Part shown: positions 5,653 to 37,162 of the stretch, piece after piece
How the letters are laid out: each line of letters begins with the position of its first letter
How positions within the stretch are numbered: the stretch's first letter is position 1
Source of the DNA: an uncultured Chloroflexia bacterium
Lineage (GTDB): Bacteria; Chloroflexota; Dehalococcoidia; SM23-28-2; RBG-16-64-32
Reading direction: 5' to 3'
Length of the DNA stretch: 64,000 nt
NCBI GenBank assembly: GCA_963717065.1
Contig: CAVQVC010000001.1
Coordinates: 1,873,001-1,937,000 of the forward strand
Notes under the pieces: model-generated
Seen by the model: the letters and a program-made list of their open reading frames with translations, nothing else
Databases searched by the model: none
What the model was told of the DNA's origin: nothing
Translations under genes and position numbers: made by a program

Positions 5653-5796
5653 CAAAGATCGTAACCAGCCCGAAACCTTCCCGTAACATCCAGGCCATCC
5701 CGATCTGTCACTCTCGTTCCAGGGCGTCCTTCGGGAACGTCCTTGATTGCGTATTCACCTGCAGCGAGCCCGGTCTTCGGGAGGGAGTGCATAACC

Positions 5797-9366: not shown

Positions 9367-9522
9367 GAGACACCTCCGGTTCGTTAGTGGCTAGAGGATA
9401 GCACAGGCTGAATAGTCCAACCTCGTTACCTCCGACTTCCCGCTTCCTTCCTCTTCAATCTTCCCGAACTTTCGTTATGTTACCCTGACGAAGGAACCAA
9501 TTTCTCGCCGCTGTCGTTTATT

Positions 9523-10511: not shown

Positions 10512-10521
10512 GGCGGCGCGG

Positions 10522-11809
10522 ATGCGGTTCTTCGGACAGAGCATCGGCGCCTTCCTGAGGTTCCTCTACCGGCACCACAATATCCTCATTGTCCTCTGGG
10601 CATTCGGCGACGATGGCCGCCTTCGCCGCGATCACCGGCCACTGGATGTTCTACCGCGCCGCTTACGTCATCGGCGGGCTCATCCCGCTCTGCTTCCTCT
10701 GGGCGCGCATCCAGTCTCGCGGCCTCGAGGTGCACGTCGAACGAACGACTGACCGCCTCCAGGTCGGTCAGCAGGCGGAGACGACGATCCGCCTCAAGAG
10801 CCACAGCGCCTGGACCAAGCTCTGGCTCGAGGTCGAGGACGAGACGAACATGCCCGGCGCCCAGCCACGACCGTCGTCACACTCCCTTCCGCCGGCACCC
10901 GCAACTGGAAGGTGAACATGACCTGCAACCGCCGCGGTGTCTACTCCGCGGGCCCCGTGCGCGTCACCACCGGCGACCCCTTCGGCCTCTTCAAGTTCAG
11001 CCGCACATACGGCGAGCGAGAGTCGCTCATCGTCCTCCCGCAGCCGGAGGAGCTACCGTACTTCTGGGCGCCGGCCGCCCAGCTTCCCGGCGAGGGCGTT
11101 GTCCGCCAGCCGCACGCACTACGTCACGCCCAACGCCGCCGGCATCCGCGAGTACTACCCCGGCGACAGCTACAACCGTATCCACTGGAACTCCACCGCG
11201 CGACTGGGCCGGCTGATGGTGAAGACGTTCGAGATGGACCCGACCAGCAACATCTGGGTACTCCTCGACCTCAATCGCGCAGCCCAACACGGCGAAGGCG
11301 ACGAAAGCACCGAGGAGTACGCCGTCCGCATCGCAGCTTCGATCGCTTACCGCTTCCTCAACGCCAACCGCATGCTCGGTCTGATGATGGTCGGACGCGA
11401 GACTGTCATCCTCGACCCGGCCCGCGGCGGCCAGCAGTACACTCGCATCCTTGAATCGCTCGCCGTTGCCGAAGCCAGCGGCAAGACATCGCTCTCCGAG
11501 GTCATCCAGGAAGAAGGCCGCCGCTTCGGCCGCCACACGACGCTTATCGCGATCACCGCCGATTCCGACGATGAATGGACCGTCGCCCTGCACCAACTCC
11601 TCCGCCAGGGCACACGTGCCGCCGCCGTTCTCCTGGACCCGCAGAGCTTCGGCGCACCCGAGGGCTCCACGCTCCCCATCGATGAGCTACTCTCCGGCAA
11701 CGTGCTGACTTACGTCGTCCCCAACACGTCCGATATTTCGCTCATGCTCGGCCCCGCAGGCGTCGTCGGCGGAGCCACAGCCGAGCGCCAGACGGTGGCG
11801 GTGCGCTAG
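10522..11809 (+). pseudogene. DUF58 domain protein (MoxR partner), about 3 frameshifts
   Basis: Pieces lie in ORFs 10522.., 10589.., 10912.. and 10937..11809. The DUF58 signature REYxPGDxxRxIHW appears as IREYYPGDSYNRIHWNSTAR. Canonical position after moxR. Confidence 0.8.
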
Positions 11810-11811
11810 CG

Positions 11812-14305
11812 ATGGCCGAGATGGAATGGACGCGACCTTCACCCGCCGCGAAGGGACGCGAGCTCCCCGGCTGGCTGCAGTCTTTCGCGGCACGCTACCT
11901 GGACTGGGAGGACTGGCTCACCCTCGCCCTTCTTTCCGGCGCCACCCTTAGCGTTGCCGTAACACTCGAAAACGGCGGCTGGACCCGCGACATGCCTGCC
12001 ATCACTCTCGTCGCCATGCTCGCGATTGTCGCCTCCCTCTTCTTCGCCCGCTCGCGCCTCTCCATGCTGATCGCCTGGCCCTCGGCGATCGCGGTGGGAG
12101 CGCTGGTGGTCGCCTGGCAAACGCTGATCATGGTCGGCCCCGGCAGCCCTGAGCAGCGCATCGATGCCGTATACCATCGCTTCGACGCCTGGCTCGACGC
12201 CGCCTTCAACAACCTCGTCAACAACGACCCGCTGCCCCTCAACGTGCTCACCCTCGGCATCACCTGGCTCGGAGTCTTCCTCTTCGGCTGGAGCGTATTC
12301 CGCTGGAACAACGCCTGGATCGGCCTCATCCCCGGCGGCCTCGCGCTATTCCTCGACCTCGCCTACGTCGGCGACGAACTCTCCGGTGCCGTCCTCGGCT
12401 ACGTGCTCTGCGGCTTCCTCCTCATCATGCGCACCAACCTCGTCGGAAACATCACCCGCTGGCGCAGGGAGGGCGTGTCGTATCCGCCGCTCATCAGCCT
12501 CACCTTCCTGAACTTCAGCTTCTGGGCCCTGCTCCTCGTGCTAATCGGCGCCTGGGTCGCGCCCCTCGGCCCCTTCAGCACGCCGGCGCCGGTACAGCGG
12601 CTCGTCGACGAGTTCCACGAGTTCGGGGCGGGGTTCGTCCGCCTTGCCGGGCCGTTGCACGTGAAGAAAGTCGTCCCTATTCACACGTACGTCGGCGTCC
12701 TCCCCTTCCAGGGCTCCATAGACCTTGGGGAGCGTGAGGTCCTCCTTGTCAGCGTGAACGATCCCACTATCCGCGGCCCGTTCGTCCTTCGCGGCACCTC
12801 CTATGACCGTTACGCCTCCGGAGGTTGGGACACGGGCCCCCGGGACGACGCTTCCCTGTCCCCCTTCTCGCGCGGCTCGATTGAATCTCAGCTTGAGGCC
12901 GGCGAAGTGCAGGGCACGATCGTCCCGATGCATGTCGATGTCCAGGCCAAGAGCGTCGTCGGCAACGTCCTTTTCACCGTGGGGCATCCCCTCACCACGA
13001 ACCCCAAGGTAACCGCGAAAGTCCCCAGCGGCAGCCTCGATGAGGTGTACCCGGACCTTCCCGACCAGGGCCGCAACATGCCCGATTCGCAAATCATGCG
13101 CGACTACCTCGCCGACGGCCTCGTCGGCGTCACCGTGGCCCGCGACGCCACCAATGCGGTGGAATATATCGACGCTTTCGACACCAAGGACGCCCCGGTG
13201 ATGGACACCCTCATGCTCGAACCCGGCTCACGCGTGCGCAAAGGTCAGGGCTACGACATCACATCCTTCGTCCCCACCTACACACCCGAGGGACTTCGAG
13301 CCGCGAACGGCGCCTACCCTTCCTGGATAAGGCAGTACCTCCAGCTTCCCGACGGCCTCCCGAACCGCATCGGTCAGAAGGCGCGGGAAGTTGCCGACAC
13401 CTACGCCGACCACAGCCAGGCCGAGCTTACAAACTATGACGCCGCCAAAGCCATCGAGAGCTATCTCCGCGTCGAATTCCCTCTCAGCTACGACGTGCCC
13501 GAGACTCCTCCCGGCGAAGACACGGTCGATCACTTCCTGTTCGAATCGAAGAAGCGGCTACTTCGACTACCACGCGTCGGCGATGGTTGTGATGCTGCGC
13601 ACGCTCGGCATTCCCGCGCGCCTGGGCATCGGCTTCGTGATCGATGAAGGCGACCTCAACCGCGATGGCGACGCCTACATCGTCCGCGACCGCAACACGT
13701 ACGCCTGGCCCGAGGTCTACTTCCCCGACAACGGCTGGGTCACGTTCAACCCCAGCCCCGACCGCCCCGAAAACCTCAACCCGGTGGTCCGCGAGGATCT
13801 CCCCGGGAGCGACCAGATCGACCCCGACATCCTGAAGAATCTCCCCGTCGGCGCCGACCCCATCTTCGACATCCCCGGCGAGGCGTTCGGAGGCGCCGAC
13901 ACCCCCTCGTCGGCCCAGCCCTCAAGCGACAACAACAACCCCCTGTTTGCGCTGGCCGTTACGGCTGTCGTAGCGATGATCGCCGGCGCCATCTATTTCG
14001 GCTGGCAGCGCTCTGTCAACGGTCTTCCCTGGGCGCAGGCTCATTGGGAGAAGCTCGTCCGCATGTCCTCACTTGCCGGCTACCCGCCGCAGCCAGGCCA
14101 GACGCCGGTAGAGTTTGCCCGCGGGCTCCAGCGCACCCACCGCAGCCTGCGCGGCGTCTCCGTCCTCGCCGCCGCGTACTGCCGCTCCCGCTTCGCCCAC
14201 CGCGAGCCCACCGCGGAAGAGAAAAAGCGCATCAAGGACATGTGGCCCGACATGCGAGGCGCCCTACTCGGCAGGGCTGCCACCCGCTTCTTCCGCCGCC
14301 ATTAG
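11812..14305 (+). pseudogene. Polytopic membrane transglutaminase-domain protein (TgpA-like), one frameshift near 13555
   Basis: N-terminal multi-TM region. The TGase core (GYFDYHASAMVVMLRTLGIPARL...DRNTYAWPEVYF) continues in ORF 13391..14305. Third member of the MoxR/DUF58/TGase operon. Confidence 0.8.
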
Positions 14306-14343
14306 TCCGGACGAAGCGGCGAGATCCCAGTCGTCAACGCCAA

Positions 14344-16275
14344 CTAAGAACGATGCGGCAGGTACCTCAGCGGATCGACCGCGACGCCGTCGCGGTACAG
14401 TTCGAAATGCAGGTGCGTCCCCGTTGAGTGACCCGTGCAACCCAGCGCGCCCACCGGGCGCCCCTGGTCCACGTCCTGGCCTTCCTCGACGTACGTCTTC
14501 GTGAGATGCGCGTAGAGCGATCGCGATCCGTCCTTGTGCGCGATGATGACGTGGTTGCCGTACCCCTCGCTGCTGTAGCCCTCGTCGCCGCTCTCCACCT
14601 CTTCAACGCGGCCCGCGGCGACCGAAAGTACCGGCGTCCCGAACTGGGACAACCCGCCGATGTCGATGGCGTTGTGCACGTACCCCGGCCGCTGCTCTCC
14701 AAAGAACGTCGTTATCGGCCCGTAGAAGGGCCAGATGTAGCCATACTCGGAGGGGTTCGTGTATGCCCAGCGCGCGGCTTCGCTCTGCTTGAACGCCTCC
14801 GGCGGGATCGCCCGCGGTAGTAGCAGCGTCTGCCCCGGGCGGAAGTCGCCAGCGGTCTTCAGTTTGTTCCCCGGATAGGCGACGATCATTCCCACTTCTG
14901 TGCTGTATCTCGCGGCGATGTTAGCCAGCGTCTCGCCTTTGCGAGTCGTATAGACAACACCAGGGTAGCCGGGGAGCACCAGCTCATCCCCCACTCGCAG
15001 CGCATCTCCGATTCCACGCCCGGGATTACTCCACAGGATGTGGTCGGGACATATCCCGAAGGTCTTTCCGATAGACGCCAGGTCATCCCCGGACCTCACC
15101 TCGTACACTACGTACGCTGCCTGCCCCGGCTGGAAGCCGTACTGCCTGGGGTCGGGCGGCGGTGTGGGCGCCGCCGTTGGAGTAGGTGCGGGCGTCGGCT
15201 CCAGCGCTCGCTTGGGCGACAACCTCATCCGCATCATGTACTGGCGCTCCTGGTTGTCCTCCGCTCGTTCGTCCGGCGCTTCGGGCAGCACCACGGGAGG
15301 TCTGAGGTAGGCGAGTATGGCCGGCTGCATGGGTTGAGGAGCCGTCGCCGCCAGCGCGCCGGAATTGTGCGCAGTTCTAAGACCGGCCCCCGCCGCCGCC
15401 GCAAACGCCAGCCCCAGGAACAACACGTGAAGCAGATAGCGGGTTCCCCTCCCCGCTCCATGCGAGGGCAGCGCCACCTCGGGCTCAGCTTCCTCGGCGG
15501 TGCCGGAGACCTCCAGACTCTCGTTCTCGGGCTCGCCGTCTTCGATGGCGTCCGTCGCAGCGCTCACGCTGTGCATCTCCAGGACTTCCTCGGCAGACGC
15601 CGGAGCGCCCGCGACATGGGCTGTCTCCTCGTTCGTCTCCCGATCATCGACGACCGCCTCGACTTCGTCTTCCCAGTCGTCTGTCTCCGCCGCGTCCTTC
15701 GTCTCATCCAGTACCGGGTCTGACAGTTCGACCGAGAAGGTCCCGGCCGGCTCAGCGGGTTCCTCGGGGCTCTCCTCCGCCTCTGCGACCACCTCAACTT
15801 CTGTCTCCGGGTCTGGTTCCGGAGCAGCCGCCTTCAACGAGACCCCCAGCTCCCCACCGATCCCGACCAGGTCCGAGAGCAGGTCCCCTATAGCGATATC
15901 TTCAACCTCGGCAGCCAGGCTGCCCTCCTCAGTCTCCTTCTTCGCGTCCCGGAAGATGTCCAACAGGTCCAGGTCCAGCGAGTCGTCTTTCAGGGCATCC
16001 GCCACCGAAGTGGCGGCGTCGGTGGTTCCTTCACCATTCGCCGCCGGCGCGACCTCCGCCGTCGCCGGCAGATCCACGGCCAGCGCAGCCAGCGGGTCAG
16101 GCGCCCCGGCGGCCTCAATCGCCTCCTCTGGAAGCGCCTCCGGCAGCACAACCGGCTCCGGCTCGTCCAGGCGCGCCCTCATCCGCTCCATCGCACCTTC
16201 ACGCGCCTGACGAAGTGCCTTGGGGTCGCGCTGCGCCCTGCCGTTGTCGCGCTTCATGAAAAATAGCAGTCTCAT
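14344..16275 (-). CDS. Bitopic membrane protein: acidic disordered N-terminal region, one TM, Pro-rich linker, 2x LysM, M23 metallopeptidase
   Basis: 643-aa intact ORF. LysM-like repeats (YEVRSGDDLASIGKTF..., YTTRKGETLANIAARY...). M23 motifs HNAIDIGG and GxTGHSTGTHLHFELY. The start lies 7 nt downstream of the arlJ stop on the same strand. Confidence 0.9.
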   Translation of the reverse strand: MRLLFFMKRDNGRAQRDPKALRQAREGAMERMRARLDEPEPVVLPEALPEEAIEAAGAPDPLAALAVDLPATAEVAPAANGEGTTDAATSVADALKDDSLDLDLLDIFRDAKKETEEGSLAAEVEDIAIGDLLSDLVGIGGELGVSLKAAAPEPDPETEVEVVAEAEESPEEPAEPAGTFSVELSDPVLDETKDAAETDDWEDEVEAVVDDRETNEETAHVAGAPASAEEVLEMHSVSAATDAIEDGEPENESLEVSGTAEEAEPEVALPSHGAGRGTRYLLHVLFLGLAFAAAAGAGLRTAHNSGALAATAPQPMQPAILAYLRPPVVLPEAPDERAEDNQERQYMMRMRLSPKRALEPTPAPTPTAAPTPPPDPRQYGFQPGQAAYVVYEVRSGDDLASIGKTFGICPDHILWSNPGRGIGDALRVGDELVLPGYPGVVYTTRKGETLANIAARYSTEVGMIVAYPGNKLKTAGDFRPGQTLLLPRAIPPEAFKQSEAARWAYTNPSEYGYIWPFYGPITTFFGEQRPGYVHNAIDIGGLSQFGTPVLSVAAGRVEEVESGDEGYSSEGYGNHVIIAHKDGSRSLYAHLTKTYVEEGQDVDQGRPVGALGCTGHSTGTHLHFELYRDGVAVDPLRYLPHRS

Positions 16276-16282
16276 GGCGAAC

Positions 16283-17863
16283 TCACTGTGGCGGCGGCCC
16301 CGGAGTCCCGGACAGGGTGTCCGAGAACATGCTCGCCGCCACTTGCGGCACGATCAACAGGATCAGCCCGCTGCTGATCATCGTTATCGAAAGGAATAGC
16401 GCTGTCTTGTTGCGGTGCCCGCCGGAAGCGGAGCGTGCGGCGAACGCGTTCACAAACGTCAGGGACACGATAACGCCGAGTACGATGATCTTCAGAAAGG
16501 CCGTATCGAACGACTGGAACGCCAGCGCGCCGGGGATGCCGATGTCCTCCGGCCGGATGCTCGCCGTGTTCTCTGTCTGTGACAGCGCCTGCGCGTCCAG
16601 GAGCTTATCGTTGAACGCCGACACCACTTCGGTGATGAAAACAAGCGTCCCCATCAGAGCGATGTGCATGGGAATAACGACGTAGTTGAAAGTGCTCGAG
16701 ACGAGCTTCCGCTTGGCCCGCAGCAACCAGACGCGCAGCGCCATGTCGGAGGCATACTTCCCGACCTTCTCGGGCTCGCCTCCCCAATCGCAACCGTCCC
16801 AGAACGAGCGCACCACGCGGTGCACCAGTTCGCTGCCTGTATCCGCCATGAATCGCGTCCAACAAAGGCTGGTGTTCAGACCGCAGGCTACCCGCGTCAG
16901 CAGGCCTTTCAGCTCGGGCTCCAATGCTCCAATCGCCCGCTGGTCAATGTGGTGCAGGCTCTCGATGACAGTCGCCCCTCGCGCCGCCGTCACGCCGCCC
17001 AGGGAACGCAAGAAGTCCGCGATGTCCCTGTCCCTGGCGTCGATCTTCTGTTCAAGCTTGAGTGTCATGATCCCGACGGGAAGGATGATCAAGCCACCCA
17101 GCACGAACGCAACCGCCACGCCGAACACGAAGTAGGCGCCGGCGCTGACGAGTACCGCCGCCGGTAAGCACGCTTTCGCTACGAGCGATAAACGTTCTTG
17201 TTCCTCCGATCTCATCTCCATGTTGTGGACGATCGGGTCGTATGGAGCGATACGGTAGATCAGGTAAGCGCCCAAAATCGCAGCGATTACGGCCACTCCC
17301 TCGATCATCAGCAGGAAGACTGACCCCAGGTTGTAGATCATGTTCGATATCAGCGCCACCACGACGATCAGAGTGCAGGAGACCATCATCGCCACGAACG
17401 CGTCGGTCCACTTCTTGAGAGCCTCGATCGCCCGCTCGTACTCGTTCGTGTAGTCCTCCATGATCACAGCCGTCTCCCGGGCCAGGAACACGTACTCCGG
17501 CTCGCCGGAAGCCATTGAATTGCCGAAGCGCAGCAAGAACTGCCGGATCACCTCGTCCTTTGTCTTCTTCGCAACCACATGGCAGGCGTGCGAGTAGTCG
17601 TAGCCCAGGGACTGCACGAGGTTGACCACCTGCGCGAAGTACGGCGACGGCGTGTATCCCAGCTTTGAAGCGCTGTCGAAGATCTGCTCCCGGCTCAGGT
17701 TTGCCGTAGAGGTCGACGACAGGTAGGTGAGCACAGTGAGCAGGTCAAACTGGCTGTGGTCCATGTCCAGCAGCCAGCTGCTCTTGATCTCGGCCAGCGC
17801 TGGCGCACGGCCGGACGAGATCGTCTGCGCGTCGGCCTTAGAAGAGGCCTTGCTTCTTAGCAT
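16283..17863 (-). CDS. arlJ: Archaellum polytopic membrane platform protein ArlJ (FlaJ), T2SS-F-like
   Basis: About 525 aa with multiple TM helices and two cytoplasmic T2SSF-like domains. Typical FlaJ size and position after the FlaI-like ATPase. The ATG at 17863 has an AAGGTG SD and overlaps the arlI 3' end by 26 nt. The longest ORF starts at TTG 17899. Confidence 0.85.
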   Translation of the reverse strand: MLRSKASSKADAQTISSGRAPALAEIKSSWLLDMDHSQFDLLTVLTYLSSTSTANLSREQIFDSASKLGYTPSPYFAQVVNLVQSLGYDYSHACHVVAKKTKDEVIRQFLLRFGNSMASGEPEYVFLARETAVIMEDYTNEYERAIEALKKWTDAFVAMMVSCTLIVVVALISNMIYNLGSVFLLMIEGVAVIAAILGAYLIYRIAPYDPIVHNMEMRSEEQERLSLVAKACLPAAVLVSAGAYFVFGVAVAFVLGGLIILPVGIMTLKLEQKIDARDRDIADFLRSLGGVTAARGATVIESLHHIDQRAIGALEPELKGLLTRVACGLNTSLCWTRFMADTGSELVHRVVRSFWDGCDWGGEPEKVGKYASDMALRVWLLRAKRKLVSSTFNYVVIPMHIALMGTLVFITEVVSAFNDKLLDAQALSQTENTASIRPEDIGIPGALAFQSFDTAFLKIIVLGVIVSLTFVNAFAARSASGGHRNKTALFLSITMISSGLILLIVPQVAASMFSDTLSGTPGPPPQ

Positions 17864-19553
17864 TTCCAAGCACCTTGTACAGCTCGTAGAAGTTTGCAAT
17901 GCCGGACGACTTGTGCAGCTTCTCCAGCACCCGCGACCGCCGCTCGATGTCCGCGTAGATTCGGCGCCGCTGCTGCGGCGGGATCCCGCGAGCCGGCGCC
18001 ACCTTGTTCTCCAGCAGGTAGCTGTTCATGTATCCGGTGAACTCGTGCTGGTCCGTGATCGGGTCCCATTTGAACGTCTCTGCATACGAGAAGGAGTCTG
18101 TAACGGAGTCATACCCGAACAGCTCGTTCACAGAAAGAATGCGCCTTCCCAGCTTGCCGTTCGGCAGTTTCACAGCGCTGGCAATCACCACCAGGTTCAG
18201 GTTGTCGATGTAGGACTTCGGCACGCTGATCGGCGGTGCAGTCACGCGCTGGATCAGCTTTTCAACCGTCGCCGCGTGGAACGTGGCCATGCAGGCGTGT
18301 CCCGTCTGCATCGCCTGGAAAGCGATGTTTCCCTCCTCACCGCGGATCTCTCCGACGATGATTTCGTTGGGGCGTTGCCGCAGCGCTGCCTTCAAGAGGT
18401 CGAACATGGTCACGCTGGCCGCCTCACCCGCGGCTCCTCGCACCACTTCGCGCAGCCAGTTCGGGTGCGGAATCTGCACCTCCGGCGTGTCCTCTACAGT
18501 CACGACCTTGGCGTCCGGCTCGATGAACGTCGTCAGGGCGTTGAGGAGTGTCGTCTTGCCCGACGCTGTTTCCCCGGACACCCACATGTTCATCCCCTCT
18601 TCGATCATGATCGAGAGGTACGCGATCATCTGGTAGGTGCAGGCGCCACCGCTAACCACGTCCATTACGCTCAGAGGCGTGGCGCTGAACTTACGGATGG
18701 TGAAGTTGCTTCCCCGCTTCGAGACTTCTTCGCCGTAGACGATGTTCACACGCGAGCCGTCCGGCAGTGTCGCGTCGACGATCGGCTTCCGGTAGGTGAC
18801 CGGCTTGTTGATACGCTCGGAAGTCCGCCGCAAGAACGCGTCCAGGTCTTCGTTCTTGTCGAAGATGATCGTGGATTTGAGCGCCTTGAAGACCTTGTGC
18901 TCGATGAAAATCGGGCCGAGCCCCGCGCAACTGATGTCCTCGATGTTCGGGTCGAGGATCAGCGGGTCCATGATGCCAAGTCCGATCTTGTCGCGGAGCA
19001 TCAGGTATCGGACCGCCTCGATGTCGTCCTGCCCCAGAGCGATCCTTCCCTTCGCCTTCCCCCAGCTGCCGTCTGCATGACGCACGGTTCCCGGGCCCGA
19101 TACGCTCACCACCCGGTCCAGCGAGTTCAGCAAGACTTCACGCTGCTCGTCTATTGTTTGAGGCTGGTGGAACTTGTGCACGGCTCCTATCAGGAGGTCC
19201 TCGACGATCTCCATCAGAGAGTCGTAGTCGCTCAGGATCGTCGGTTCAACCGGCACGTAGTGGTTTCGGGCGTCCTTTGGGTCTGCGATGATGTGCGCGA
19301 ACGTCGCGTTGCCCACCGGATAGATGTAATTGGGGTTGTCGTTGCTTCCCATGGTTCGGTCAAGCTTTTCGACCAGTTCCGGGAACCCCATCTCGCTGCC
19401 CGCCAGGTGGTGGACATAGCGACGCACGTGGGCGTGCTCCTGCGACAGCTCGAGAAGCGCCGCCGGCAGGCTCGCGCAGATGCCGCAGGACGCCTCGATG
19501 TGCGTCAGGTCAGACCAATCGGTCTCTTCAAACGGAAGCGCAACGTATGGCAT
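17838..19553 (-). CDS. arlI: Archaellum assembly/motor ATPase ArlI (FlaI), T2SS-E/VirB11 superfamily
   Basis: 571 aa. Walker A GETASGKTT, Walker B/Asp box IIVGEIRGEE, His box ATFHA. Long FlaI-type N-terminal domain. Confidence 0.92.
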   Translation of the reverse strand: MPYVALPFEETDWSDLTHIEASCGICASLPAALLELSQEHAHVRRYVHHLAGSEMGFPELVEKLDRTMGSNDNPNYIYPVGNATFAHIIADPKDARNHYVPVEPTILSDYDSLMEIVEDLLIGAVHKFHQPQTIDEQREVLLNSLDRVVSVSGPGTVRHADGSWGKAKGRIALGQDDIEAVRYLMLRDKIGLGIMDPLILDPNIEDISCAGLGPIFIEHKVFKALKSTIIFDKNEDLDAFLRRTSERINKPVTYRKPIVDATLPDGSRVNIVYGEEVSKRGSNFTIRKFSATPLSVMDVVSGGACTYQMIAYLSIMIEEGMNMWVSGETASGKTTLLNALTTFIEPDAKVVTVEDTPEVQIPHPNWLREVVRGAAGEAASVTMFDLLKAALRQRPNEIIVGEIRGEEGNIAFQAMQTGHACMATFHAATVEKLIQRVTAPPISVPKSYIDNLNLVVIASAVKLPNGKLGRRILSVNELFGYDSVTDSFSYAETFKWDPITDQHEFTGYMNSYLLENKVAPARGIPPQQRRRIYADIERRSRVLEKLHKSSGIANFYELYKVLGNAKKQGLF

Positions 19554-19559
19554 CGTCGA

Positions 19560-20468
19560 CTACGCCTTCGTCTTCGAAATCGGGACGCTCTTCAAGCCGA
19601 TGCCGGGCTCCACTGTGAAGCTCACGGAATTGGCCACCGTCTTCACGGCCCCGCGGATCTTGGAGACCTCAAGCGTGCGCACTACCTGCTTGCCCAACTC
19701 CTCGATTCGCAGCCGCAGGTGGGCGTCTACGATCGAGTCCGCGCGCAGCCGCAGCGACTCGTTGATGGCATAGGAATGCAGCGTGACGAGGATCGTCTTC
19801 CCCAGGTTCGCCAGCTCCTTGCAGGTCGCGAGGAACGAGAGCACGTACCGGGCGTCGAACTGAAAGAGCAGCGCCGTCATCGAGTCAAAGATGATTACGT
19901 CCGGCCCGTCTGCCGCCTCGATGTACTTCAGGAGCCGTCTCATCAAGTGCTCGGCCTTCTCCTGCTCGATGCGCAGGTTGACAGGGTAAAGCGCCAGCCG
20001 TCGCACGAGGTAGTAGTCGGTGCTCTGCATCCCCAGGCTCTGCATCTGGTCCAGAAACTCCCTTACCGTCGTCTCCGAGAGGAAGGCGACGACCGTCAGC
20101 CCGCCCTTGAGGGCGTTGTAGGCGAGCTGTTCCACGACCACGCTCTTTCCCGACTCAGGGTCGCCCTCCACCAGGGTGATGGTGTCCAGGGGAAGCCCGC
20201 CGCCGAGCTTCTTATCCACATCCATCACGCCCATGGCGATCAGCCGGGGAATTTCCTCGTCTTCCTCTTCGGGCTGCTCCGGTTCGTCTTCCACCATCGG
20301 CTCCGCCGCGAACAGGGCGGCAGGGTCTACGGGCGTAACAGCAGGCAACGGTTCGGCGCCAGCTGATTCGATGTTCTCAGGCGACACCACTTTGACGGGC
20401 GCCGCCGGAGCCTGTTCGCCTTCGGCTTCAGACGTGGTCGGTTCTTCAAGCTTGACTTCTGCTTCCAT
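19560..20468 (-). CDS. arlH: Archaellum KaiC/RecA-like ATP-binding protein ArlH (FlaH) with an acidic ~75-aa N-terminal extension
   Basis: Walker A GDPESGKS and a RecA/KaiC-like fold pattern (IIFDSMTAL, LVTLH). Position between arlG and arlI. Confidence 0.85.
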   Translation of the reverse strand: MEAEVKLEEPTTSEAEGEQAPAAPVKVVSPENIESAGAEPLPAVTPVDPAALFAAEPMVEDEPEQPEEEDEEIPRLIAMGVMDVDKKLGGGLPLDTITLVEGDPESGKSVVVEQLAYNALKGGLTVVAFLSETTVREFLDQMQSLGMQSTDYYLVRRLALYPVNLRIEQEKAEHLMRRLLKYIEAADGPDVIIFDSMTALLFQFDARYVLSFLATCKELANLGKTILVTLHSYAINESLRLRADSIVDAHLRLRIEELGKQVVRTLEVSKIRGAVKTVANSVSFTVEPGIGLKSVPISKTKA

Positions 20469-20478
20469 CAGAGCCTCG

Positions 20479-20982
20479 CTAGAAGTAGACCGTGTACGCT
20501 ACGCCGGTTCCCGTGGACAGCACCAGCCACCGGTCCGGGCTGGCGACCGTTACCGGGCTCACCCGAATTCGGATCGTCATCTCCTCGCCCGTGTCGACGA
20601 TGCGTGGATTGTGGTAGTCGTTTGATATGCCGGTGATTGACCACGAGTTGTCGGGTTGCGAGGGGCTCTCGTCAAACGGCAGCCATATTTGGTGACGCTG
20701 CGAGTCCGAGCCGTCGTAGCTCACTATCAGGTCCATGTGGCTAAAGTCGGAGACCTGCGTCCTGCCCTGGTTGCGGACCTGCGCGGTGATTTCCGCACCG
20801 GATCCGTCCACGGATGTTGACACCACCGCGAGGTCAGTGCCTAACCGCTCCTCGGAGATCACTTCCATCTCTCTCCAGGAGCTGTTCACGTTATTAACGG
20901 ACGAGTTCGTCACCCCGGCGATGAGGACGCCGCCGACGATGATGATCGATGCAATGAGGAGCGCCGGTATTGTGTGTTCCAT
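20479..20982 (-). CDS. arlG: ArlG-like (FlaG) archaellum stator-type protein
   Basis: 167 aa. Single N-terminal hydrophobic helix (IPALLIASIIIVGGVLIAGV) followed by a beta-rich domain. The F versus G assignment rests only on the euryarchaeal gene order. Confidence 0.6.
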   Translation of the reverse strand: MEHTIPALLIASIIIVGGVLIAGVTNSSVNNVNSSWREMEVISEERLGTDLAVVSTSVDGSGAEITAQVRNQGRTQVSDFSHMDLIVSYDGSDSQRHQIWLPFDESPSQPDNSWSITGISNDYHNPRIVDTGEEMTIRIRVSPVTVASPDRWLVLSTGTGVAYTVYF

Positions 20983-20984
20983 GG

Positions 20985-21491
20985 CTAAGACACGCTGAAA
21001 GTCTTGCTGGCCGTTATCCCATTCGGCAGCACGATCGTGACGATGTACTCGGAACCGGAGGCCAGGTCATAGTCGAGATAAAGGGACAGCCGCACCGTGG
21101 CAAAAGGTGACCACTCCGTTGCATTTTCGATTTGGTACTGCCAGCACGGCGTCGCGCGGGGCGGGGATGGGGGCGTGACACAGTCGACCGTGTCGTCGTA
21201 GGGTACCCGCTCGAAATTGGCGGTCGGCCCGAAGAAGACGTCGAGTTTGTCGATCTGGGAGATGTCGGCAGCGCCGACGTTCTTCGCCCAGATGTCCACC
21301 TGGTCGTTGCCGTCGACCCCTGTCGCCTCGATGACCTTTACATCGCTGCGGAGGCGGGTACCGACGACATCGCTTGCGGCGACTATGTCGCTGCTTGTTC
21401 GCTGCACGCTGGGCAGAACAGAGTTAATCACGACAACCGTCGAAACGATTGCCGCGATCATCAGCAGCATGGACGTTATTACTTTGTCCAC
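20985..21491 (-). CDS. arlF: ArlF-like (FlaF) archaellum stator-type protein
   Basis: 168 aa. GTG start with a GGGGG SD. N-terminal helix (ITSMLLMIAAIVSTVVVI) followed by a beta-rich domain. 2-nt gap to the next gene. Confidence 0.6.
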   Translation of the reverse strand: MDKVITSMLLMIAAIVSTVVVINSVLPSVQRTSSDIVAASDVVGTRLRSDVKVIEATGVDGNDQVDIWAKNVGAADISQIDKLDVFFGPTANFERVPYDDTVDCVTPPSPPRATPCWQYQIENATEWSPFATVRLSLYLDYDLASGSEYIVTIVLPNGITASKTFSVS

Positions 21492-21526
21492 GGTCTACCC
21501 CCGGCAGTGGATGAATGCGTTGGATG

Positions 21527-22315
21527 TCAGAGCGCGGCCAGCCGGTCGAGGTCTTGCATGACCTTTAGCCAGGGCGGGTCACTCTCCTCACTGGAGTTCA
21601 ACAGCTCCTGCAGGTAGGCGAGAGCTCGGCTGATGTTGGGCGGCATGTTGCCCCACAGCCGGTGAATGGCAATGATCCGCTCCAGCTCGTGCGGACCAAC
21701 GGTTGACAGAGCTTCCGTCAGCCATTCCGAAATGGTGATTGTGCCGCTGAGCGGCATCAGTGGGTCGGCCTGGTACATGGGCGGGATCTCCGTGGGCAGC
21801 GGCGCGTCCAGATCCACTTCGGCTGAAGGCTTTCTGAGCTGCCGTTTCACGACCTTTGGTGCCGGCGCATCCTCCGGATCGTCCTCGGCGCCAGTGCCTT
21901 CGTCGCTCGCTTCGATGGGCTCGGGGATCTCTGCTTCTTCCGACGACTCCACGTCCTCAGCTCGGACCACCTCGATGCCATTCGGAAGGGCGGGGGCATC
22001 GTCGGCTGCCTCGGCGTCGCCATCCTCAGCGTCAGTCGCCTCGGATCCGTCCGGGTGCGCGGCCTCATGGGTGTGCGCGGGCACTTCGTGATCACCTTCG
22101 CCGGCGTTCATGGCCTCCTTGGCAACCGCCTCCGATGCCATCGCACGCGCCGTCGTGTTCAGGTCCATGCGGATGAACGCAGACTCGTGCTCCTCGGCCA
22201 ACGGATTGCTCCGCTCGAGGATCACCTCGCGGATATCCAGGAGGACGTTACGTATCTCGGCCTTGAGAACCTTGAACTCGTCTTCCAGTTCCTTGATCTT
22301 GGCGTCGACTTCCAT
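21527..22315 (-). CDS. ArlC/D/E-like archaellum accessory protein (coiled coil, acidic linker, conserved C-terminal domain)
   Basis: 262 aa. N-terminal heptad coiled coil (KIKELEDEFKVLKAEIRNVLLDIREV), an E/D/A/P-rich linker of roughly 110 aa, and a globular C-terminus (WLTEALSTVGPHELERIIAIHRLWGNMPPNISRAL). Sits between the archaellins and arlF, as flaC/D/E do. Family call from memory and synteny. Confidence 0.5.
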   Translation of the reverse strand: MEVDAKIKELEDEFKVLKAEIRNVLLDIREVILERSNPLAEEHESAFIRMDLNTTARAMASEAVAKEAMNAGEGDHEVPAHTHEAAHPDGSEATDAEDGDAEAADDAPALPNGIEVVRAEDVESSEEAEIPEPIEASDEGTGAEDDPEDAPAPKVVKRQLRKPSAEVDLDAPLPTEIPPMYQADPLMPLSGTITISEWLTEALSTVGPHELERIIAIHRLWGNMPPNISRALAYLQELLNSSEESDPPWLKVMQDLDRLAAL

Positions 22316-22352
22316 CTAAATCCCGACCCATCCATCCAAAAGATCCAGCGGC

Positions 22353-22386
22353 GCCGGGCCGCCCGTCTGAGGCAAGACGGCCCGGC
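22353..22386 (-). terminator. GC-rich hairpin between arlB and the accessory genes (possible attenuator)
   Basis: Arms GCCGGGCCG(CC)CGTC / GACGGCCCGGC with an 8-nt loop, just downstream of the arlB stop. A TCTTTTGG tract follows about 9 nt later on the transcript, so this is not a textbook terminator. Confidence 0.3.
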
Positions 22387-22401
22387 TTCGCTGAATGCGG
22401 T

Positions 22402-22995
22402 CTAGTGCAGGTCCATTACGAGGTCGACTTCCGGGGGCATGGTCCGCTCGATCAGGAGCGTTCCACCCTGCGAAGGGACGACCTCAAGCGTGAAGATCTC
22501 GTTCGTGGCCAGCGTCGAACCGGTCGGCGGGTTCACGGTGACCTCGAAGAGCTCACCGTTCTCCAGCAGGTTGTCGCCGTCACCCTGGATCTGGTTGACC
22601 GTGTACGTCGTGTCGGCCACGCGGTCCTGGGCGTCGATGTAGTTGATGACAACCGAGTTGCTGGTCGCCGCCGGGTCAACGAGGACCGGGAAGCCGCCGG
22701 CGGCGTTGGCCAGGTTGAAGATGATCTCGTCGTCATCCCCAATCGTGCCCACCGTCGCGCCGGAGTCCGACACCGTGACGGCGCCGCGGACTTCCAGGTT
22801 GCCCCGAGCCTTCTCCAGACCGGCGAAGACAGTCTCTTTGCCTCGCTCGGCGCTGAACAGACCCGTGCTGAGAACGACGAACGCGAACACCGAAGCGACG
22901 ATCACGAATGCGATTAGAATGATCGCCGTCTCCAGGCCCGTGATTCCGTCCTCGCGCTTGTGAAGCTGGCTAAGCAGCTTGATAAACTTGGACAT
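22402..22995 (-). CDS. arlB: Archaellin (archaeal flagellin) with class III signal peptide, copy 1
   Basis: 197 aa. MSKFIKLLSQLHKREDG|ITGLETAIILIAFVIVASVFAFVVL is the type-IV-pilin-like archaellin N-terminus. Beta-rich C-terminal domain. Confidence 0.9.
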   Translation of the reverse strand: MSKFIKLLSQLHKREDGITGLETAIILIAFVIVASVFAFVVLSTGLFSAERGKETVFAGLEKARGNLEVRGAVTVSDSGATVGTIGDDDEIIFNLANAAGGFPVLVDPAATSNSVVINYIDAQDRVADTTYTVNQIQGDGDNLLENGELFEVTVNPPTGSTLATNEIFTLEVVPSQGGTLLIERTMPPEVDLVMDLH

Positions 22996-23031
22996 TACTT
23001 ACCCCTACTTTCCGTGAGCATCCTGCACGTT

Positions 23032-23616
23032 CTAGTGCAGGTCCATCACTACGTCGACCTCAGGCGGCATGGTGCGCTCGATGAGCAGCGTGCCACCCAG
23101 CGGCGGAACGACTTCGACGGTGAAGGTCTCGTTCGGGTCCAGCGCCCCACCCGGAGCAACGTTCGCCTCGAAAAGCTCACCGTTCTCCAGAAGGTTGTCG
23201 CCGTCGCCCTGGATCTCCGTCACCGTGTACGTTATGTCCGCCGTGCGGGCCTGAGCGTCGATAAAGTTCATGACTACCGAATTGGTCGTGGCAGCCGGGT
23301 CGACCAGGACGGGGAACCCGCCCGCGGCGTTAGCCAGGTTGAACTCAATGTTGTCGGCGGCCGTGATCGTGCCGGACGCGTCTGTGTCCGTCACCGTCAC
23401 CGCACCGCGGACTTCCAGGTTGCCCCGAGCCTTCTCCAGACCGGCGAAGACAGTCTCTTTGCCTCGCTCGGCGCTGAACAGACCCGTGCTCAGTACGACG
23501 AAGGCGAACACCGAAGCGACGATCACGAATGCGATGAGGATGATCGCCGTCTCGAGGCCCGTGATGCCTTCCTCTTTCTTGTTCAGGCTGCCAAGCAGCC
23601 TCAGAAGCTTGCTCAT
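23032..23616 (-). CDS. arlB: Archaellin with class III signal peptide, copy 2 (first gene of the operon)
   Basis: 194 aa. From GITGLETAIIL to RGAVTV it is identical to copy 1. Strong SD AAGGAGGGG upstream of the ATG. Confidence 0.9.
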   Translation of the reverse strand: MSKLLRLLGSLNKKEEGITGLETAIILIAFVIVASVFAFVVLSTGLFSAERGKETVFAGLEKARGNLEVRGAVTVTDTDASGTITAADNIEFNLANAAGGFPVLVDPAATTNSVVMNFIDAQARTADITYTVTEIQGDGDNLLENGELFEANVAPGGALDPNETFTVEVVPPLGGTLLIERTMPPEVDVVMDLH

Positions 23617-24018
23617 CTACCCCTCCTTGGGGAATCTGCCCGCAGGTTGAATTTCTGCGCTGTAGGCGCAGGCCGGCGGGCGCTATCTGCGTGTTTATTT
23701 GGACCTATGCACTTAGACCTGCGATCACCCCTTCCATGTCGGGATTTCTCAATTGAATTTGACGTTATTGACGCGCAAATGTTGCTAATCAGTGCCGTGC
23801 GGCCGACCCAAAACTATGTAATGGGTTAACGAAGGTGTATGGCCGGTTAATTGGCTCTCGTCGCGCCCGTTCCATGTGACGGCCGTGTTAACGCGTGTAA
23901 AACTGTGACCCCCGTCACAGTCGCGGCGTACCCCACAGGGGTATAAAAGAAACCAAGCGAATGCTTAATTAGCGCCCCGATCCTTCCCGCAAGGACGGGC
24001 ACGCGAAAGGAGCGGACA

Positions 24019-24201
24019 ATGTCTTCCTTCATCACAGAAGAGCTGATCTGGGCCACAATCTGCGACCGTCAGGAAGAGGTCCGCCGCGTCCGGCCGCACA
24101 CCGAGCAGCGGCTCCCCTCGGAAGCAGCTTCCACGCCGCCACCGTCCAAGACGGCCGGCCGCCCCTCCTGGCTCTCCCTCCAGCCCTCCCTGAACCGTTG
24201 A
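24019..24201 (+). CDS. Small hypothetical protein (60 aa)
   Basis: Strong SD GAAAGGAG 7 nt upstream of the ATG. No recognisable domain. Coding status uncertain. Confidence 0.3.
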   Translation: MSSFITEELIWATICDRQEEVRRVRPHTEQRLPSEAASTPPPSKTAGRPSWLSLQPSLNR

Positions 24202-24280
24202 TGTCGATTCGCAGACTGTCGGTCGTCGTAGTATTGAGCGGAGACAGCCGCCGGCCGCTCAGCTCAATTAGAGGTGCGCC

Positions 24281-26551
24281 ATGAGTTTTCTTTCCACTGA
24301 ATCAATAGCCCGCGCCAGCGCCCGCCGGCCCTGGACCGGTGGTGGGCATCTGGATCGCCGTGATCGTCGTGTCCGTCGCCGCCATCGCCACCCTCCTCGC
24401 CTCCGGTCTCACCACGAAGGTCGCGCTCACCAATAACCCGGAGTCCGCGCGCGCCGAGAACCTCCTCGAGGATCACCTGCGCGGACCCGAGCCCACGAAC
24501 GAGATCGTTATCGTGCGCTCCGACACCGCCACCGTGAACGACCCGCAGTTCCGCGCTACCGTCGAGGGGCTGTACAGCGATATCTCCGCCCTCGGGCCCG
24601 AGATCGTCGCCGGCGGCACCAATTTCTACCAGTCCAACGACCCTTCCCTCGTGTCCGAGGACCGCCACACCACGATCCTCCCGTTCGTGATGGCCGGCGA
24701 CGAGCAGGAAGCCGAGGACAACATCGGCGAGGTGCTGGACATCGTCGACAACGCCGACGGCAGCACCCGGGCATCGAAGTCCTGATCGCCGGCGGCGCCA
24801 GCCTCGGCGACGAGTTCCAGACCCAGGCCCAGAACGACCTCGAGCGCGGCGAGTCCTTCGGGATACCGATCGCCCTGCTCGTGCTCATCCTCGTCTTCGG
24901 GTCGCTCGTTGCGGCCGGCATGCCGCTCGTTCTCGGCATCCTCGCGATCCTCGTCGCCATCGGCATCTCCGCGCTGCTCGGCCAGGTTTTCCAGCTCTCG
25001 TTCTTCGTCACCAACGTCATCACGATGATGGGCCTCGCCGTCGGCATCGACTACTCGCTGTTCATCGTCTCCCGCTACCGCGAGGAGCGCGGCACGGGCC
25101 TCGACAAAGTACGACGCGATCGCCGCCACCGGCTCCACCGCCAGCCGCGCCGTGTTCTTCAGCGGCATGACGGTCGTCGTCGCGCTGCTGGGCATGCTGC
25201 TCATCCCCTCCACGATCTTCCGCAGCCTCGGCGCCGGCGCCATCATCGTCGTCCTCGTCTCCGTCATCGTGTCGCTGACGCTGCTGCCGGCCATGCTCGG
25301 GCTGCTCGGCGACAAGGTGAACGCGCTCAAGGTGCCGTTCATCGGCAAGGGCGCCGATCGCCGCCGACCACGAGAAGCGCGGCGGCTTCTGGGACCGCGT
25401 CACCGGCGTTGTCATGAAGTTACCCGGTGGTCAGCCTCGTCGCCTCCGCGGCGATCCTGATCGCCCTCGCCATCCCCTACCTCGACATCAACACCGGCTC
25501 CGCCGGCGTCAGCACGCTGCCGGAGAGCCTGCGCGCCCGCCAGGGCTTCGAGATCCTGCAGGACGAGTTCTCCGCCGGTCTCGTGACGCCGGCCGAGATC
25601 GCGATCGACGGCGACGTCAACGGCGACGGCCGTCCAGGGCGGCATCGACCAACCTCGACGCCGATCCTCGCCGAGCACCCGGAGTTCGGGCAGGGCACGT
25701 TCACGGCCAACGAGGACGGCACCGTCGCCCTCTACGCCGTCCCGATCAACGGCGACGCCACCCCAACGAGACGCTGGACTCCGTGCGCGCGCTGCGCGAC
25801 GAGCTACATCCCCGCAGGCGTTCGCAGGCGTCGACGCCGAGGTGCTCGTCGGCGGCGCAGACCGCCGGCGCCATCGACTACATCGACACGACGGCCGACT
25901 ACACGCCGATCGTCATCGGCTTCGTGCTGCTGCCTCAGCTTCGTCCTGCTGACGGTCGTCTTCCGCTCGATCGTCGTGCCGATCAAGGCGATCATCATGA
26001 ACCTGCTCTCGGTCGGCGCCGCCTACGGCATCCTCGTGCTCGTCTTCCAGGAGGGCGTCGGCACCGAGCTCCTCGGCTTCCAGCAGGTGGACATCATCGA
26101 GGCCTGGGTGCCGCTCTGGACGTTCTCGATCCTCTTCGGGCTATCGATGGACTACCACGTCTTCCTGCTCAGCCGCATCCGCGAGCGCTACGACCACACC
26201 GGCGACAACCGGGAGTCCGTCGCCTTCGGGGTGCGCTCGACGGCCGGCATCATCACCGGCGCGGCGCTGATCATGGCCACCGTGTTCGTGGGCGTGGCGC
26301 TGGGCGAGCTCGTGATGTTCCAGCAGATGGGCTTCGGGCTGGCCGTCGCCGTCCTCCTGGACGCGACGATCGTCCGCTCCGTCCTGGTGCCGGCGACGAT
26401 GGTCCTGCTCGGCAAGGCGAACTGGTACCTGCCGAGCTGGCTCAACTGGCTGCCCGACCTGCGCGAGCGGGAAGGCCGCGAAGAGGCGGTCGCCGCGAAC
26501 GGCCAGCCGGCCCAGCAGCGCGGCGCGACAGGAGGGGCCGAAGCCTCGTAG
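24281..26551 (+). pseudogene. MMPL/RND-superfamily membrane transporter, at least 6 frameshifts
   Basis: Homologous blocks are distributed over ORFs 24339.., 24881.., 25152.., 25427..26551 and unlisted pieces. Two 6-TM bundles (e.g. GIDYSLFIVSRYREE and GLSMDYHVFLLSRIRE) typical of MMPL. Confidence 0.8.
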
Positions 26552-26716: not shown

Positions 26717-27034
26717 ATGAAGCTCAACGGTTCCATCGAAGTCGCGGACGAAGCGATCGCCGAGTTCTGCAAGAAGTGGCGGATCACGGAGTTCGCGTTG
26801 TTCGGCTCCGTCCTGCGAGACGACTTCGGCCCCGAAAGCGATGTCGACGTACTGGTCAAGTTTGAGGCTGACGCGCCGTGGACTCTGTTCGACATGGTAC
26901 GGATGGAAGACGAGCTGTCGCGGGTCCTGGACCGCAGGGTTGACCTGATAAGTAAGCGGGCCGTGGAGAACAGCGAGAACTGGATTCGCCGCAAAGCGAT
27001 CTTGAATGCCGCCCGGACCATCTATGCGCGATGA
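26717..27034 (+). CDS. mntA: MntA-type nucleotidyltransferase antitoxin
   Basis: 105 aa. Minimal nucleotidyltransferase motif GSVLRDDFGPESDVDVLV. Overlaps the downstream HepT gene. Confidence 0.85.
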   Translation: MKLNGSIEVADEAIAEFCKKWRITEFALFGSVLRDDFGPESDVDVLVKFEADAPWTLFDMVRMEDELSRVLDRRVDLISKRAVENSENWIRRKAILNAARTIYAR

Positions 27035-27368
27035 CGACGCCACGCTACTGGACCTCGCGGCGGCTTGTCGGTTGGTTCTGGAGTTCAGCGCGGGGTTCGA
27101 CCGCGAGACGTTCCTGCGCGACCGCAAGACCCAGTCCGCAGTGCTCCACCAGTTGCTTCTCCTCGGCGAGGGGGCAAAGCGCCTGTCGGATGAGTTCAGA
27201 GCAGAGCACGGCGCGATCGACTGGAGATCGATCGCCGGCATGCGGGACAAGCTGATCCACCAGTATGATCAGGTGGACATTGAGCAGGTTTGGCTAGCGG
27301 TGGCCGAAGACGTGCCACGCCTCTCGGCCGACCTGGCCCCTCTACTTCCAACCGAGGATAGTGACTGA
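27024..27368 (+). CDS. hepT: HepT (DUF86) RNase toxin
   Basis: Rx4HxY motif present as RDKLIHQY. The ATG at 27024 overlaps mntA by 11 nt (the longest ORF starts at 27006). Confidence 0.85.
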   Translation: MRDDDATLLDLAAACRLVLEFSAGFDRETFLRDRKTQSAVLHQLLLLGEGAKRLSDEFRAEHGAIDWRSIAGMRDKLIHQYDQVDIEQVWLAVAEDVPRLSADLAPLLPTEDSD

Positions 27369-30910: not shown

Positions 30911-30911
30911 G

Positions 30912-36999: not shown

Positions 37000-37162
37000 G
37001 CGGCGTTCCTCCGTTGAGCGGTCGTTGCGGCACTAGTATGGCGCAACAAGGTCAGCGCGGGAAACACCGCGGGCGCGTTCTTCGCAAATACACAAATACA
37101 GGCGTTTGAGGCGTGTGTGCACGCGAGGGACGCCAGAAACTGCCGCCTGATAGAAGCGACGC

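Follow-up and report, generated by a model that had tools for sequence, protein, structure and literature searches.

An archaellum cluster in Chloroflexota was reportedly already described in 2013, by Hug. Chloroflexota archaellum clusters have since been counted in 243 of 3,780 genomes, and the archaellum of Litorilinea aerophila is functional and its structure has been solved by cryo-electron microscopy (Sivabalasarma et al., Nat Microbiol 2025, PMC12488501). The published phylogeny nests these clusters in Archaea and supports an ancient acquisition followed by vertical maintenance; within the phylum arlG typically precedes arlF, the prepilin peptidase is encoded outside the locus and CheF is absent (PMC12488501). 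Isolates of SAR202 have the corresponding order flaGFHIJ (PMC10444878). Here, an archaellum operon is analysed in a 64,000-nucleotide stretch of contig CAVQVC010000001.1 (hereafter the window), from an uncultured Chloroflexota bacterium. The locus belongs to the Chloroflexota archaellum already published between 2013 and 2025, and it is very probably an arl2-type operon of the Chloroflexota clade on a Dehalococcoidia/SAR202-like chromosome, vertically inherited after an ancient transfer from Euryarchaeota. A reading of the same DNA made without database searches (the sequence-only reading) had proposed that a bacterium with peptidoglycan carries a complete and probably functional archaellum operon derived from Archaea, and noted that similar clusters, and perhaps a functional case, had been reported. 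Both statements are correct (PMC12488501, also PMC10444878), and profile searches, ratios of nonsynonymous to synonymous substitution rates (dN/dS), bacterial flanks and the L. aerophila precedent all support the proposal. The only elements described here that may be new are a conserved gene at the end of the cluster and its fusion, in this locus, to a LysM-M23 ectodomain.

Results

The archaellum gene set

Eight intact open reading frames (ORFs), all on the minus strand at 16283-23616 and separated by gaps of 2-86 nucleotides (nt), make up the archaellum block, just as the sequence-only reading had listed them. A ninth gene begins 7 nt after arlJ on the same strand and is tentatively counted as part of the block, which would then continue one gene further than that reading had placed its end, to 14344. 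The features are as follows, with lengths in amino acids (aa) and the basis of each assignment in brackets.

23617..24338, minus strand: upstream non-coding region of 722 nt (codon-usage frame segmentation)
23032..23616, minus strand: arlB1, archaellin, 194 aa (PF01917, TIGR02537)
22402..22995, minus strand: arlB2, second archaellin, 197 aa (PF01917)
22347..22363, minus strand: terminator-like hairpin between arlB2 and the next gene (pattern scan)
21527..22315, minus strand: divergent ArlD/E-type gene (ORF3), 262 aa (two-step profile chain)
20985..21491, minus strand: arlG, 168 aa from a GTG or 161 aa from the ATG at 21470 (profile against FlaG 5TUG)
20479..20982, minus strand: arlF, 167 aa (family profile against FlaF 4P94)
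19560..20468, minus strand: arlH, 302 aa (NF004723)
17838..19553, minus strand: arlI, 571 aa (NF058587)
16283..17899, minus strand: arlJ, polytopic membrane platform (NF004703, PF00482)
14344..16275, minus strand: ninth gene, 643 aa (Pfam M23 and LysM; post-arl motif profile)

The best 80 genomic ArlI matches, numbered L001 to L080, served as the comparison set. All 80 loci lie in metagenome-assembled genomes (MAGs) of Chloroflexota (Dehalococcoidia, SAR202), with ArlI identities of 47-82%, and arlH is present in 76 of them, arlJ in 74, arlG in 61 and arlB in 57.

ArlI has the Walker A motif GETASGKTT, the Walker B motif IIVGEIRGEE and the His box ATFHA, and scores 653 bits against the FlaI equivalog model NF058587 (cut-off 550), compared with 169 bits for bindosome BasE (cut-off 1000), 155 for TadA and 56 for PilB among the other NCBIfam models. 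In the Protein Data Bank (PDB) it matches FlaI of Sulfolobus acidocaldarius (4II7, 424 bits) ahead of an archaeal GspE-like ATPase (2OAP, 308 bits) and bacterial CpaF (150 bits). ArlH is KaiC-like with the Walker A motif GDPESGKS; it exceeds the cut-off of the FlaH model NF004723 (225 against 194 bits), and its best PDB matches, FlaH 4YDS (expectation value, E, 1e-26) and 4WIA, stand ahead of KaiC. Residues 1-75 of ArlH form an unusual N-terminal extension, acidic and rich in proline, with no counterpart in archaeal FlaH structures; homology to other Chloroflexota loci begins at residues 70-77, and the extension is present in L001, where it has diverged. ArlJ matches NF004703 (ArlJ/FlaJ) over its full length at E 1e-129 and 433 bits, under the cut-off of 570, with ArlJ/FlaJ models the only ones of this kind matched, and it also matches PF00482 (T2SSF) over the cut-off. 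Candidate starts for arlJ are TTG 17899, ATG 17863 and ATG 17764, of which the last is favoured because homology begins near residue 49.

Both archaellins match PF01917 (E 1.7e-22 for ArlB1 and 1.2e-21 for ArlB2, each over the 29.5-bit cut-off), and the TIGR02537 archaellin/type IV pilin N-terminal model is likewise matched over its cut-off in NCBIfam. Pfam and PDB searches linked the pilin-like genes to no family other than PF01917 and solved archaellins, so profile comparison gives no sign that they are ordinary bacterial pilins. The class III signal peptides noted in the sequence-only reading read KKEEG/ITGLETAIILIAF and KREDG/ITGLE... (slashes mark the cleavage site). The best PDB match of ArlB1 is L. 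aerophila ArlB (9i5h/9SIE/9SII, E 8e-38), entries 9SIE and 9SII being the L. aerophila archaellin (PMC12488501). Cleavage is predicted between G17 and I18 (KKEEG/ITGLE) because the mature L. aerophila chain, which starts I-T-A-L-E-T-A-I-I-L-I-A-F, aligns from I18 of the window archaellin; this agrees with the cleavage site proposed in the sequence-only reading. ArlB1 and ArlB2 are identical at 157 of 197 positions (80%) and throughout residues 17-74, which comprise G17 and the first 57 mature residues. The copy number of arlB differs among close relatives, with four tandem copies in L001 (L001:4604-7186) and two in the window (22402-23616).

The arlB1 ATG is preceded, at a distance of 3 nt, by a strong Shine-Dalgarno-like AAGGAGGGG, and the upstream region shows no nucleotide-level conservation with L001. 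The hairpin at 22347..22363, a GC-rich stem followed by a T-run, is a consensus match only, of a kind found 11 times against 6.1 expected; it is possibly an attenuator that sets the ratio of archaellin to motor transcripts. An Rfam scan gave no match in or near the arl cluster.

ArlG and ArlF each have a single N-terminal hydrophobic transmembrane (TM) helix followed by an Ig-like domain. ArlG matches the NCBIfam ArlG model at E 2.7e-9, under the cut-off, and as a single sequence it finds FlaG of S. acidocaldarius (5TUG) at E 3.5e-6, while the profile of its Chloroflexota family (A6) has 5TUG as its sole significant match (E 5.6e-12). Its 161-aa gene call is present in independent assemblies. 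ArlF matches the NCBIfam ArlF model at E 1e-5, under the cut-off, and is only weakly similar to FlaF 4P94 as a single sequence (E 0.27); its family profile (A5) reaches 4P94 at E 6.6e-12, with FlaG second at 6.5e-5. The gene order is therefore B-B-(D/E)-G-F-H-I-J, the arl2 arrangement. The sequence-only reading had placed F before G and cited the Methanococcus/Pyrococcus-type order; the family profiles reverse this, the upstream gene being arlG and the downstream gene arlF. The order ORF3-arlG-arlF recurs in two separate Logan read-set assemblies. Two layouts are seen among Dehalococcoidia loci: B-(D/E)-G-F-H-I-J (the window, L008, L009, L012, L021, L025 and others) and B-G-F-J-(small coiled-coil ORF plus D/E-type ORF)-H-I (L004, L018, L040 and others).

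The third gene, ORF3, had no Pfam, NCBIfam or PDB sequence match even at E = 10, and a Foldseek search of the PDB with its AlphaFold2 model gave nothing. In the model, a disordered, acidic linker joins a long N-terminal coiled-coil helix to a four-helix domain at the C-terminus. Its 194 homologues are unnamed or from Dehalococcoidia, and one of them bears the JGI label 'FlaD/FlaE'. A hidden Markov model (HMM) of the N-terminal domain found ORFs in 62 of the 80 loci, those inspected occupying the arlCDE slot, and an HMM of the C-terminal domain had 21 matches among 1.84 billion representatives, and no archaeal link could be recognised in any of them. The slot proteins of other loci, used alone to build a profile, reach ORF3 at E 0.003-0.007 and most ORF3 homologues at E below 1e-3, and the C-terminal domain aligns with the slot-protein domain of other loci at an hhalign probability of 96.5% (E 8e-10). 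The commonest Pfam match of the slot-protein family is PF04659 (Arch_fla_DE), yet no more than 4 members out of 40 reach it, the best of them at E 8.6e-4; the slot ORF of L055 matches it at E 0.0053. ORF3 is regarded as a divergent ArlD/E-type protein, with an archaeal link that is supported but not proven. The sequence-only reading had called it an ArlC/D/E-like coiled-coil protein, of which the coiled-coil helix is seen in the model and the ArlD/E type is supported indirectly, by profile chaining.

Relatives, assembly and selection

For each arl gene, all the nearest relatives come from contigs of Chloroflexota, some of which exceed 1 Mb. The closest, L001 (CAZLDI010000016.1), comes from an independent Dehalococcoidia MAG and is collinear with the window over 9256-26480, through both junctions of the block, the common flanks being a MoxR-DUF58-transglutaminase set at one end and MMPL at the opposite end. 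Against L001, dN/dS is 0.11-0.39 over all nine genes, highest in the ninth gene (0.39), and these ratios are approximate, dS being near saturation at 0.7-1.8. The arl genes are under purifying selection. Their GC content at third codon positions (GC3) is 0.76-0.85, the same as in host genes, and there is therefore no sign of recent transfer. The overall GC content of the block (0.60-0.62) is a little under that of its immediate flanks (0.65-0.67).

Pfam scans of the window took in about 58 ORFs or frames. They confirm the bacterial genes named in the sequence-only reading, namely a single-chain beta-prime rpoC with NADFDGD, RsgA, a Peptidase_S11 DD-carboxypeptidase and LysM plus M23, and the flanks further include glutamate dehydrogenase, the MoxR-DUF58-transglutaminase set and the MMPL transporter. 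A cyclic di-AMP riboswitch is a further bacterial hallmark of the window. That reading had also reported no flg/fli or type IV pilus genes, and none was found among the ORFs and frames scanned. Likewise, the motifs it quoted (GDPESGKS, GETASGKTT, IVGEIRGEE, ATFHA and NADFDGD) are all present, and its family assignments hold in profile searches, with arlF and arlG exchanged and less securely for ORF3.

Set against their intact L001 orthologues, MMPL lies in six frame pieces, DUF58 in three and transglutaminase in two. Viterbi segmentation by codon usage places patches of frame switching at 8.5-11.1, 24.3-26.5, 46.5-53.5 and 61.4-64 kb, affecting MMPL, DUF58, MoxR, acyl-CoA dehydrogenases, CoA-transferase and hydantoinase; the clean stretches are 1-3.7, 14.4-23.6, 27-34, 36-46.5 and 54.6-59.9 kb, so the arl block is not unique in being clean. 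Homopolymer errors were rejected as the cause, the MMPL region having no runs of at least five identical bases, yet five frame switches. Dozens of frameshifts sit in sequence that is still strongly coding, and for that reason the patches point to local consensus or polishing errors and not to decay or pseudogenisation. A uniform (Poisson) indel model, tried as an argument for selection on the arl block, was discarded as the indels are patchy. The contrast drawn in the sequence-only reading between intact arl genes and indel-ridden neighbours is correct in that the indels are there, and weak as an argument for selection in that they are patchy and of an assembly type; the evidence for selection is dN/dS.

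A conserved gene at the end of the cluster

The ninth protein has a basic N-terminus and an acidic cytoplasmic region that holds a motif at residues 94-140; after a TM segment (280-302) and a proline-rich linker come two LysM domains and then an M23 domain with intact HNAID and HLH (Pfam E 3.7e-26 for M23 and 2.4e-8 for LysM). The motif is that of a family, here called post-arl, which was obtained by clustering the ORFs 3' of arlJ, building a profile from one cluster of acidic proteins and iterating it over the 80 loci. Its members are small acidic proteins (median 220 aa, as stop-to-stop ORFs) with a basic N-terminus and an acidic, disordered middle region; their conserved C-terminal motif spans roughly 50 aa and follows the pattern L-x-D-L-F...(D/N)P...L...PDV...EL..EL. 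In 71 of the 80 loci a post-arl gene is the immediate 3' neighbour of the last arl gene, in the same orientation, 39 times after arlJ and 32 times after arlI, with a median gap of 12 nt (for example L009:11802-12461, L018:13132-13839 and L054:11759-12388). In either locus layout it adjoins whichever arl gene is last, and of the nine loci without it, most are truncated by the end of the contig. No Pfam family covers these proteins, and a profile search of the PDB gave no relative; a term search of the text of PMC12488501 found no mention of such a gene, and the motif profile, used in a word-index search, matched 11 fragments, all short and unnamed.

When the motif profile was trained without the window or L001, it matched the ninth gene as the sole ORF of the window, at E 0.0026, and the L001 orthologue at E 1.4e-4; over the motif searches the E-value in the window is modest, at 0.0026-0.011. 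Among the 80 loci, the arrangement of motif, TM segment and LysM-LysM-M23 in one protein is confined to L001, which shares it with the window; in L016 a motif-like acidic ORF and a separate TM-M23 gene lie 3' of arlJ. The acidic ORF of L016 was rejected as a clear member of the family, the HMM giving no match and the pairwise comparisons being marginal (scores reached by 5 and 31 of 1000 shuffles). A LysM-M23 gene next to arlJ as a general feature of Chloroflexota was rejected as well, since it is limited to L001 and, in the form of the separate TM-M23 gene, L016.

It is a serious possibility, somewhat short of probable, that the LysM-M23 gene is a mere neighbouring cell-wall or division hydrolase and that the motif match arose by chance in an acidic, low-complexity region. 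M23 similarity beside arlJ is found in only two of the 74 other loci with arlJ, the E-value in the window is modest, a search of an index of 5.8 billion proteins retrieved no homologue for the N-terminal 300 aa, and dN/dS is the highest of the block. On the other hand, the profile that singles out this ORF was trained without it, and none of 5000 composition-preserving shuffles reaches the motif score, for the window and L001 alike. Furthermore, the position of the gene is precisely that of the family in 71 loci, with the last arl gene immediately before it on the same strand, and the basic N-terminus of its product (MRLLFFMKR...) resembles those of other members (MRFKSLK..., MKFKGFK...). Tentatively, the ninth protein would join a conserved motor-associated module to an extracellular LysM-LysM-M23 part, making it a candidate link between motor and peptidoglycan. 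The fuller proposal, in which an undescribed, near-universal terminal post-arl gene has been fused here, through a TM segment, to a murein-binding and murein-cleaving ectodomain that tethers the motor or cuts a passage for it, is possible and at present rather doubtful.

Other features of the window

A histidine kinase with MASE1 and PAS domains, followed by a stand-alone CheY-like receiver-domain protein, is encoded at 41771-44223 on the plus strand, 18 kb from the arl cluster; response-regulator, PAS or kinase genes occur 3' of arlJ in 14 related loci. To the features listed by the sequence-only reading can be added a cyclic di-AMP (ydaO-type) riboswitch at 37466-37608 on the minus strand (87 bits). 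About 430 nt downstream of it lies a tandem universal-stress-protein gene (36109-37032), and riboswitches of this class do not usually precede a gene of that kind. A McrBC-like restriction system (MrcB_N, an AAA_5 McrB-type GTPase and a DUF2357/PD-(D/E)XK McrC-like nuclease) occupies 29039-32788 on the minus strand at a GC content of 0.55-0.59, and this low-GC island is probably a recently acquired defence island. Beside it, at 26717-27344 on the plus strand, lies a toxin-antitoxin pair of a nucleotidyltransferase (MNT) and a HepT-like ribonuclease. A tRNA-Phe gene (6065-6138, minus strand) falls where the N-terminal part of a glutaminase-cNMP-binding gene (5665-7625, plus strand) seems to be in another frame; this gene may be truncated or mis-assembled in that region.

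Discussion

The data presented, taken with the published tree, very probably place the operon within a clade whose member in L. aerophila is a working archaellum, and the archaeal and L. aerophila systems provide the basis for a model of how it would operate. An A24 prepilin peptidase encoded elsewhere would cut ArlB1 and ArlB2 after G17 and so release their class III signal peptides of 17 residues. An ArlI hexamer on the ArlJ platform, modulated by ArlH, would use ATP first for assembly of the filament and then for its rotation. ArlG and ArlF, each anchored by its N-terminal helix, would form a stator fixed to a rigid layer of the envelope, with ArlG as the stator filament protein and ArlF as the stator cap or envelope-binding protein, and the divergent ArlD/E-type protein would be part of a cytoplasmic ring or switch. 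More tentatively, the ninth protein might tether the motor to peptidoglycan, open the peptidoglycan locally, or both. By analogy with the same systems we infer that the operon would be expressed, that a filament would be assembled and that the cells would swim.

Several points weigh against a functional archaellum of this ancestry. The operon was called complete in the sequence-only reading; the archaellum gene set is there, but no Peptidase_A24 gene was found in the 64-kb window by Pfam scans, an A24 HMM or tblastn. Such a gene occurs in 14 of the 80 loci, all among the 45 that have arlJ directly after arlI, at most 3 kb downstream of arlJ. Pfam scans likewise gave no che genes in the window, and no sigma-70 consensus match exists anywhere in 14000-24500. 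ArlJ, ArlG and ArlF all fall under their NCBIfam equivalog cut-offs, the ArlD/E assignment is a two-step profile chain with a weak Pfam link, the saturation of dS limits the dN/dS ratios to approximations, and placement in the clade relies on score ranking together with the published tree (PMC12488501). Finally, no filaments were seen on cultured SAR202 strains that carry clusters of this type, and the strains were described as non-motile (PMC10444878).

The last point would fit a cluster that is kept under selection for something other than swimming, such as a non-rotating adhesive or uptake filament, or that is expressed under rare conditions only. The SAR202 isolates have complete clusters (PMC10444878), Pfam scans of the window gave neither CheF nor che genes, CheF is absent from the phylum (PMC12488501), and the ArlD/E-type protein is highly diverged. 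This explanation is nevertheless unlikely: purifying selection acts on the archaellum-specific parts for rotation and the stator, all of which (ArlH, ArlG and ArlF) are encoded here, and the homologous cluster of L. aerophila drives swimming even though its archaella are absent in liquid culture and appear only on soft agar (PMC12488501).

An archaeal contig mis-joined into a bacterial MAG is highly improbable and effectively refuted by the independent MAG with the same flanks on both sides: dozens of apparent frameshifts mark the assembly as imperfect and the block is slightly lower in GC than its flanks, but the closest relatives of all arl genes are in Chloroflexota contigs, GC3 matches host genes and the ninth gene, 7 nt from arlJ, has bacterial LysM and M23 domains. 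An ordinary bacterial Tad/Flp pilus, type IV pilus or archaeal-type adhesion pilus misread as an archaellum is hardly credible either, for although ArlI and ArlJ share the superfamilies T2SSE and T2SSF with pilus ATPases and platforms, the family scores of ArlI refute it, the pilin-like proteins match archaellins only, and ArlH, ArlG and ArlF are specific to archaella.

A 2026 paper on the L. aerophila envelope states as an open question by what means the stator of an archaeal motor is held in an envelope that contains peptidoglycan, and PilO-LysM, the current anchor candidate, is encoded close to arl genes in no more than 3 of 244 genomes (PMC13319060). Should the post-arl module bind to the motor in the cytoplasm, the protein seen here would be a bacterial invention that ties an archaeal rotary motor to murein, or cuts a passage for it, without an archaeal S-layer. 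The LysM-M23 fusion of the ninth gene offers a concrete, testable alternative to PilO-LysM, in a context where 71 of 80 loci have a terminal post-arl protein.

The locus adds one Dehalococcoidia case to some 243 genomes and is confirmatory for the transfer of a whole rotary machine across domains, followed by vertical maintenance under purifying selection. The Tad/Flp pilus is itself derived from an archaeal pilus. With its CpaF/TadA ATPase and TadB/C proteins it belongs to the same type-IV-filament superfamily and is likewise of archaeal origin in bacteria; the window differs in that its ATPase scores three to four times lower on CpaF/TadA than on FlaI, in having no Flp pilin and in having ArlH, ArlF and ArlG. 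Among Dehalococcoidia, the SAR202 bacterium 'Candidatus Lucifugimonas marina' (Lim et al., Nat Commun 2023, PMC10444878) also has flaB copies followed by flaG-F-H-I-J and an A24 peptidase encoded elsewhere, with six tandem and six scattered flaB genes compared with two arlB genes here and four in L001.

The resemblance to L. aerophila-type clusters extends to arlB copies, a putative ArlCDE-type gene, arlG before arlF, arlH-I-J, peptidoglycan genes in the host, a peptidase outside the locus (none in the window here) and no CheF, and to the archaellin itself, where the same cleavage is predicted before I-T-x-L-E-T-A-I-I-L-I-A-F. Unlike L. aerophila, a member of the Caldilineales, the host is Dehalococcoidia-like and has two archaellin genes; no PilN or PilO-LysM homologue was found among the window ORFs scanned, and a LysM-LysM-M23 ectodomain is carried instead by the gene after arlJ. 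Archaeal arl2-type clusters, such as those of Archaeoglobus fulgidus and Methanotecta, have the same arlG-arlF order, and the structures that best match ArlI, ArlH, ArlG and ArlF are those of S. acidocaldarius (4II7, 4YDS, 5TUG and 4P94). In contrast to archaeal arl2 clusters, the operon described here resides in a peptidoglycan host and not in one with an S-layer-only envelope, its ArlD/E-type protein is unrecognised by Pfam, its ArlH has an acidic N-terminal extension and, as surveyed in Chloroflexota loci, an additional conserved gene follows the arl genes.

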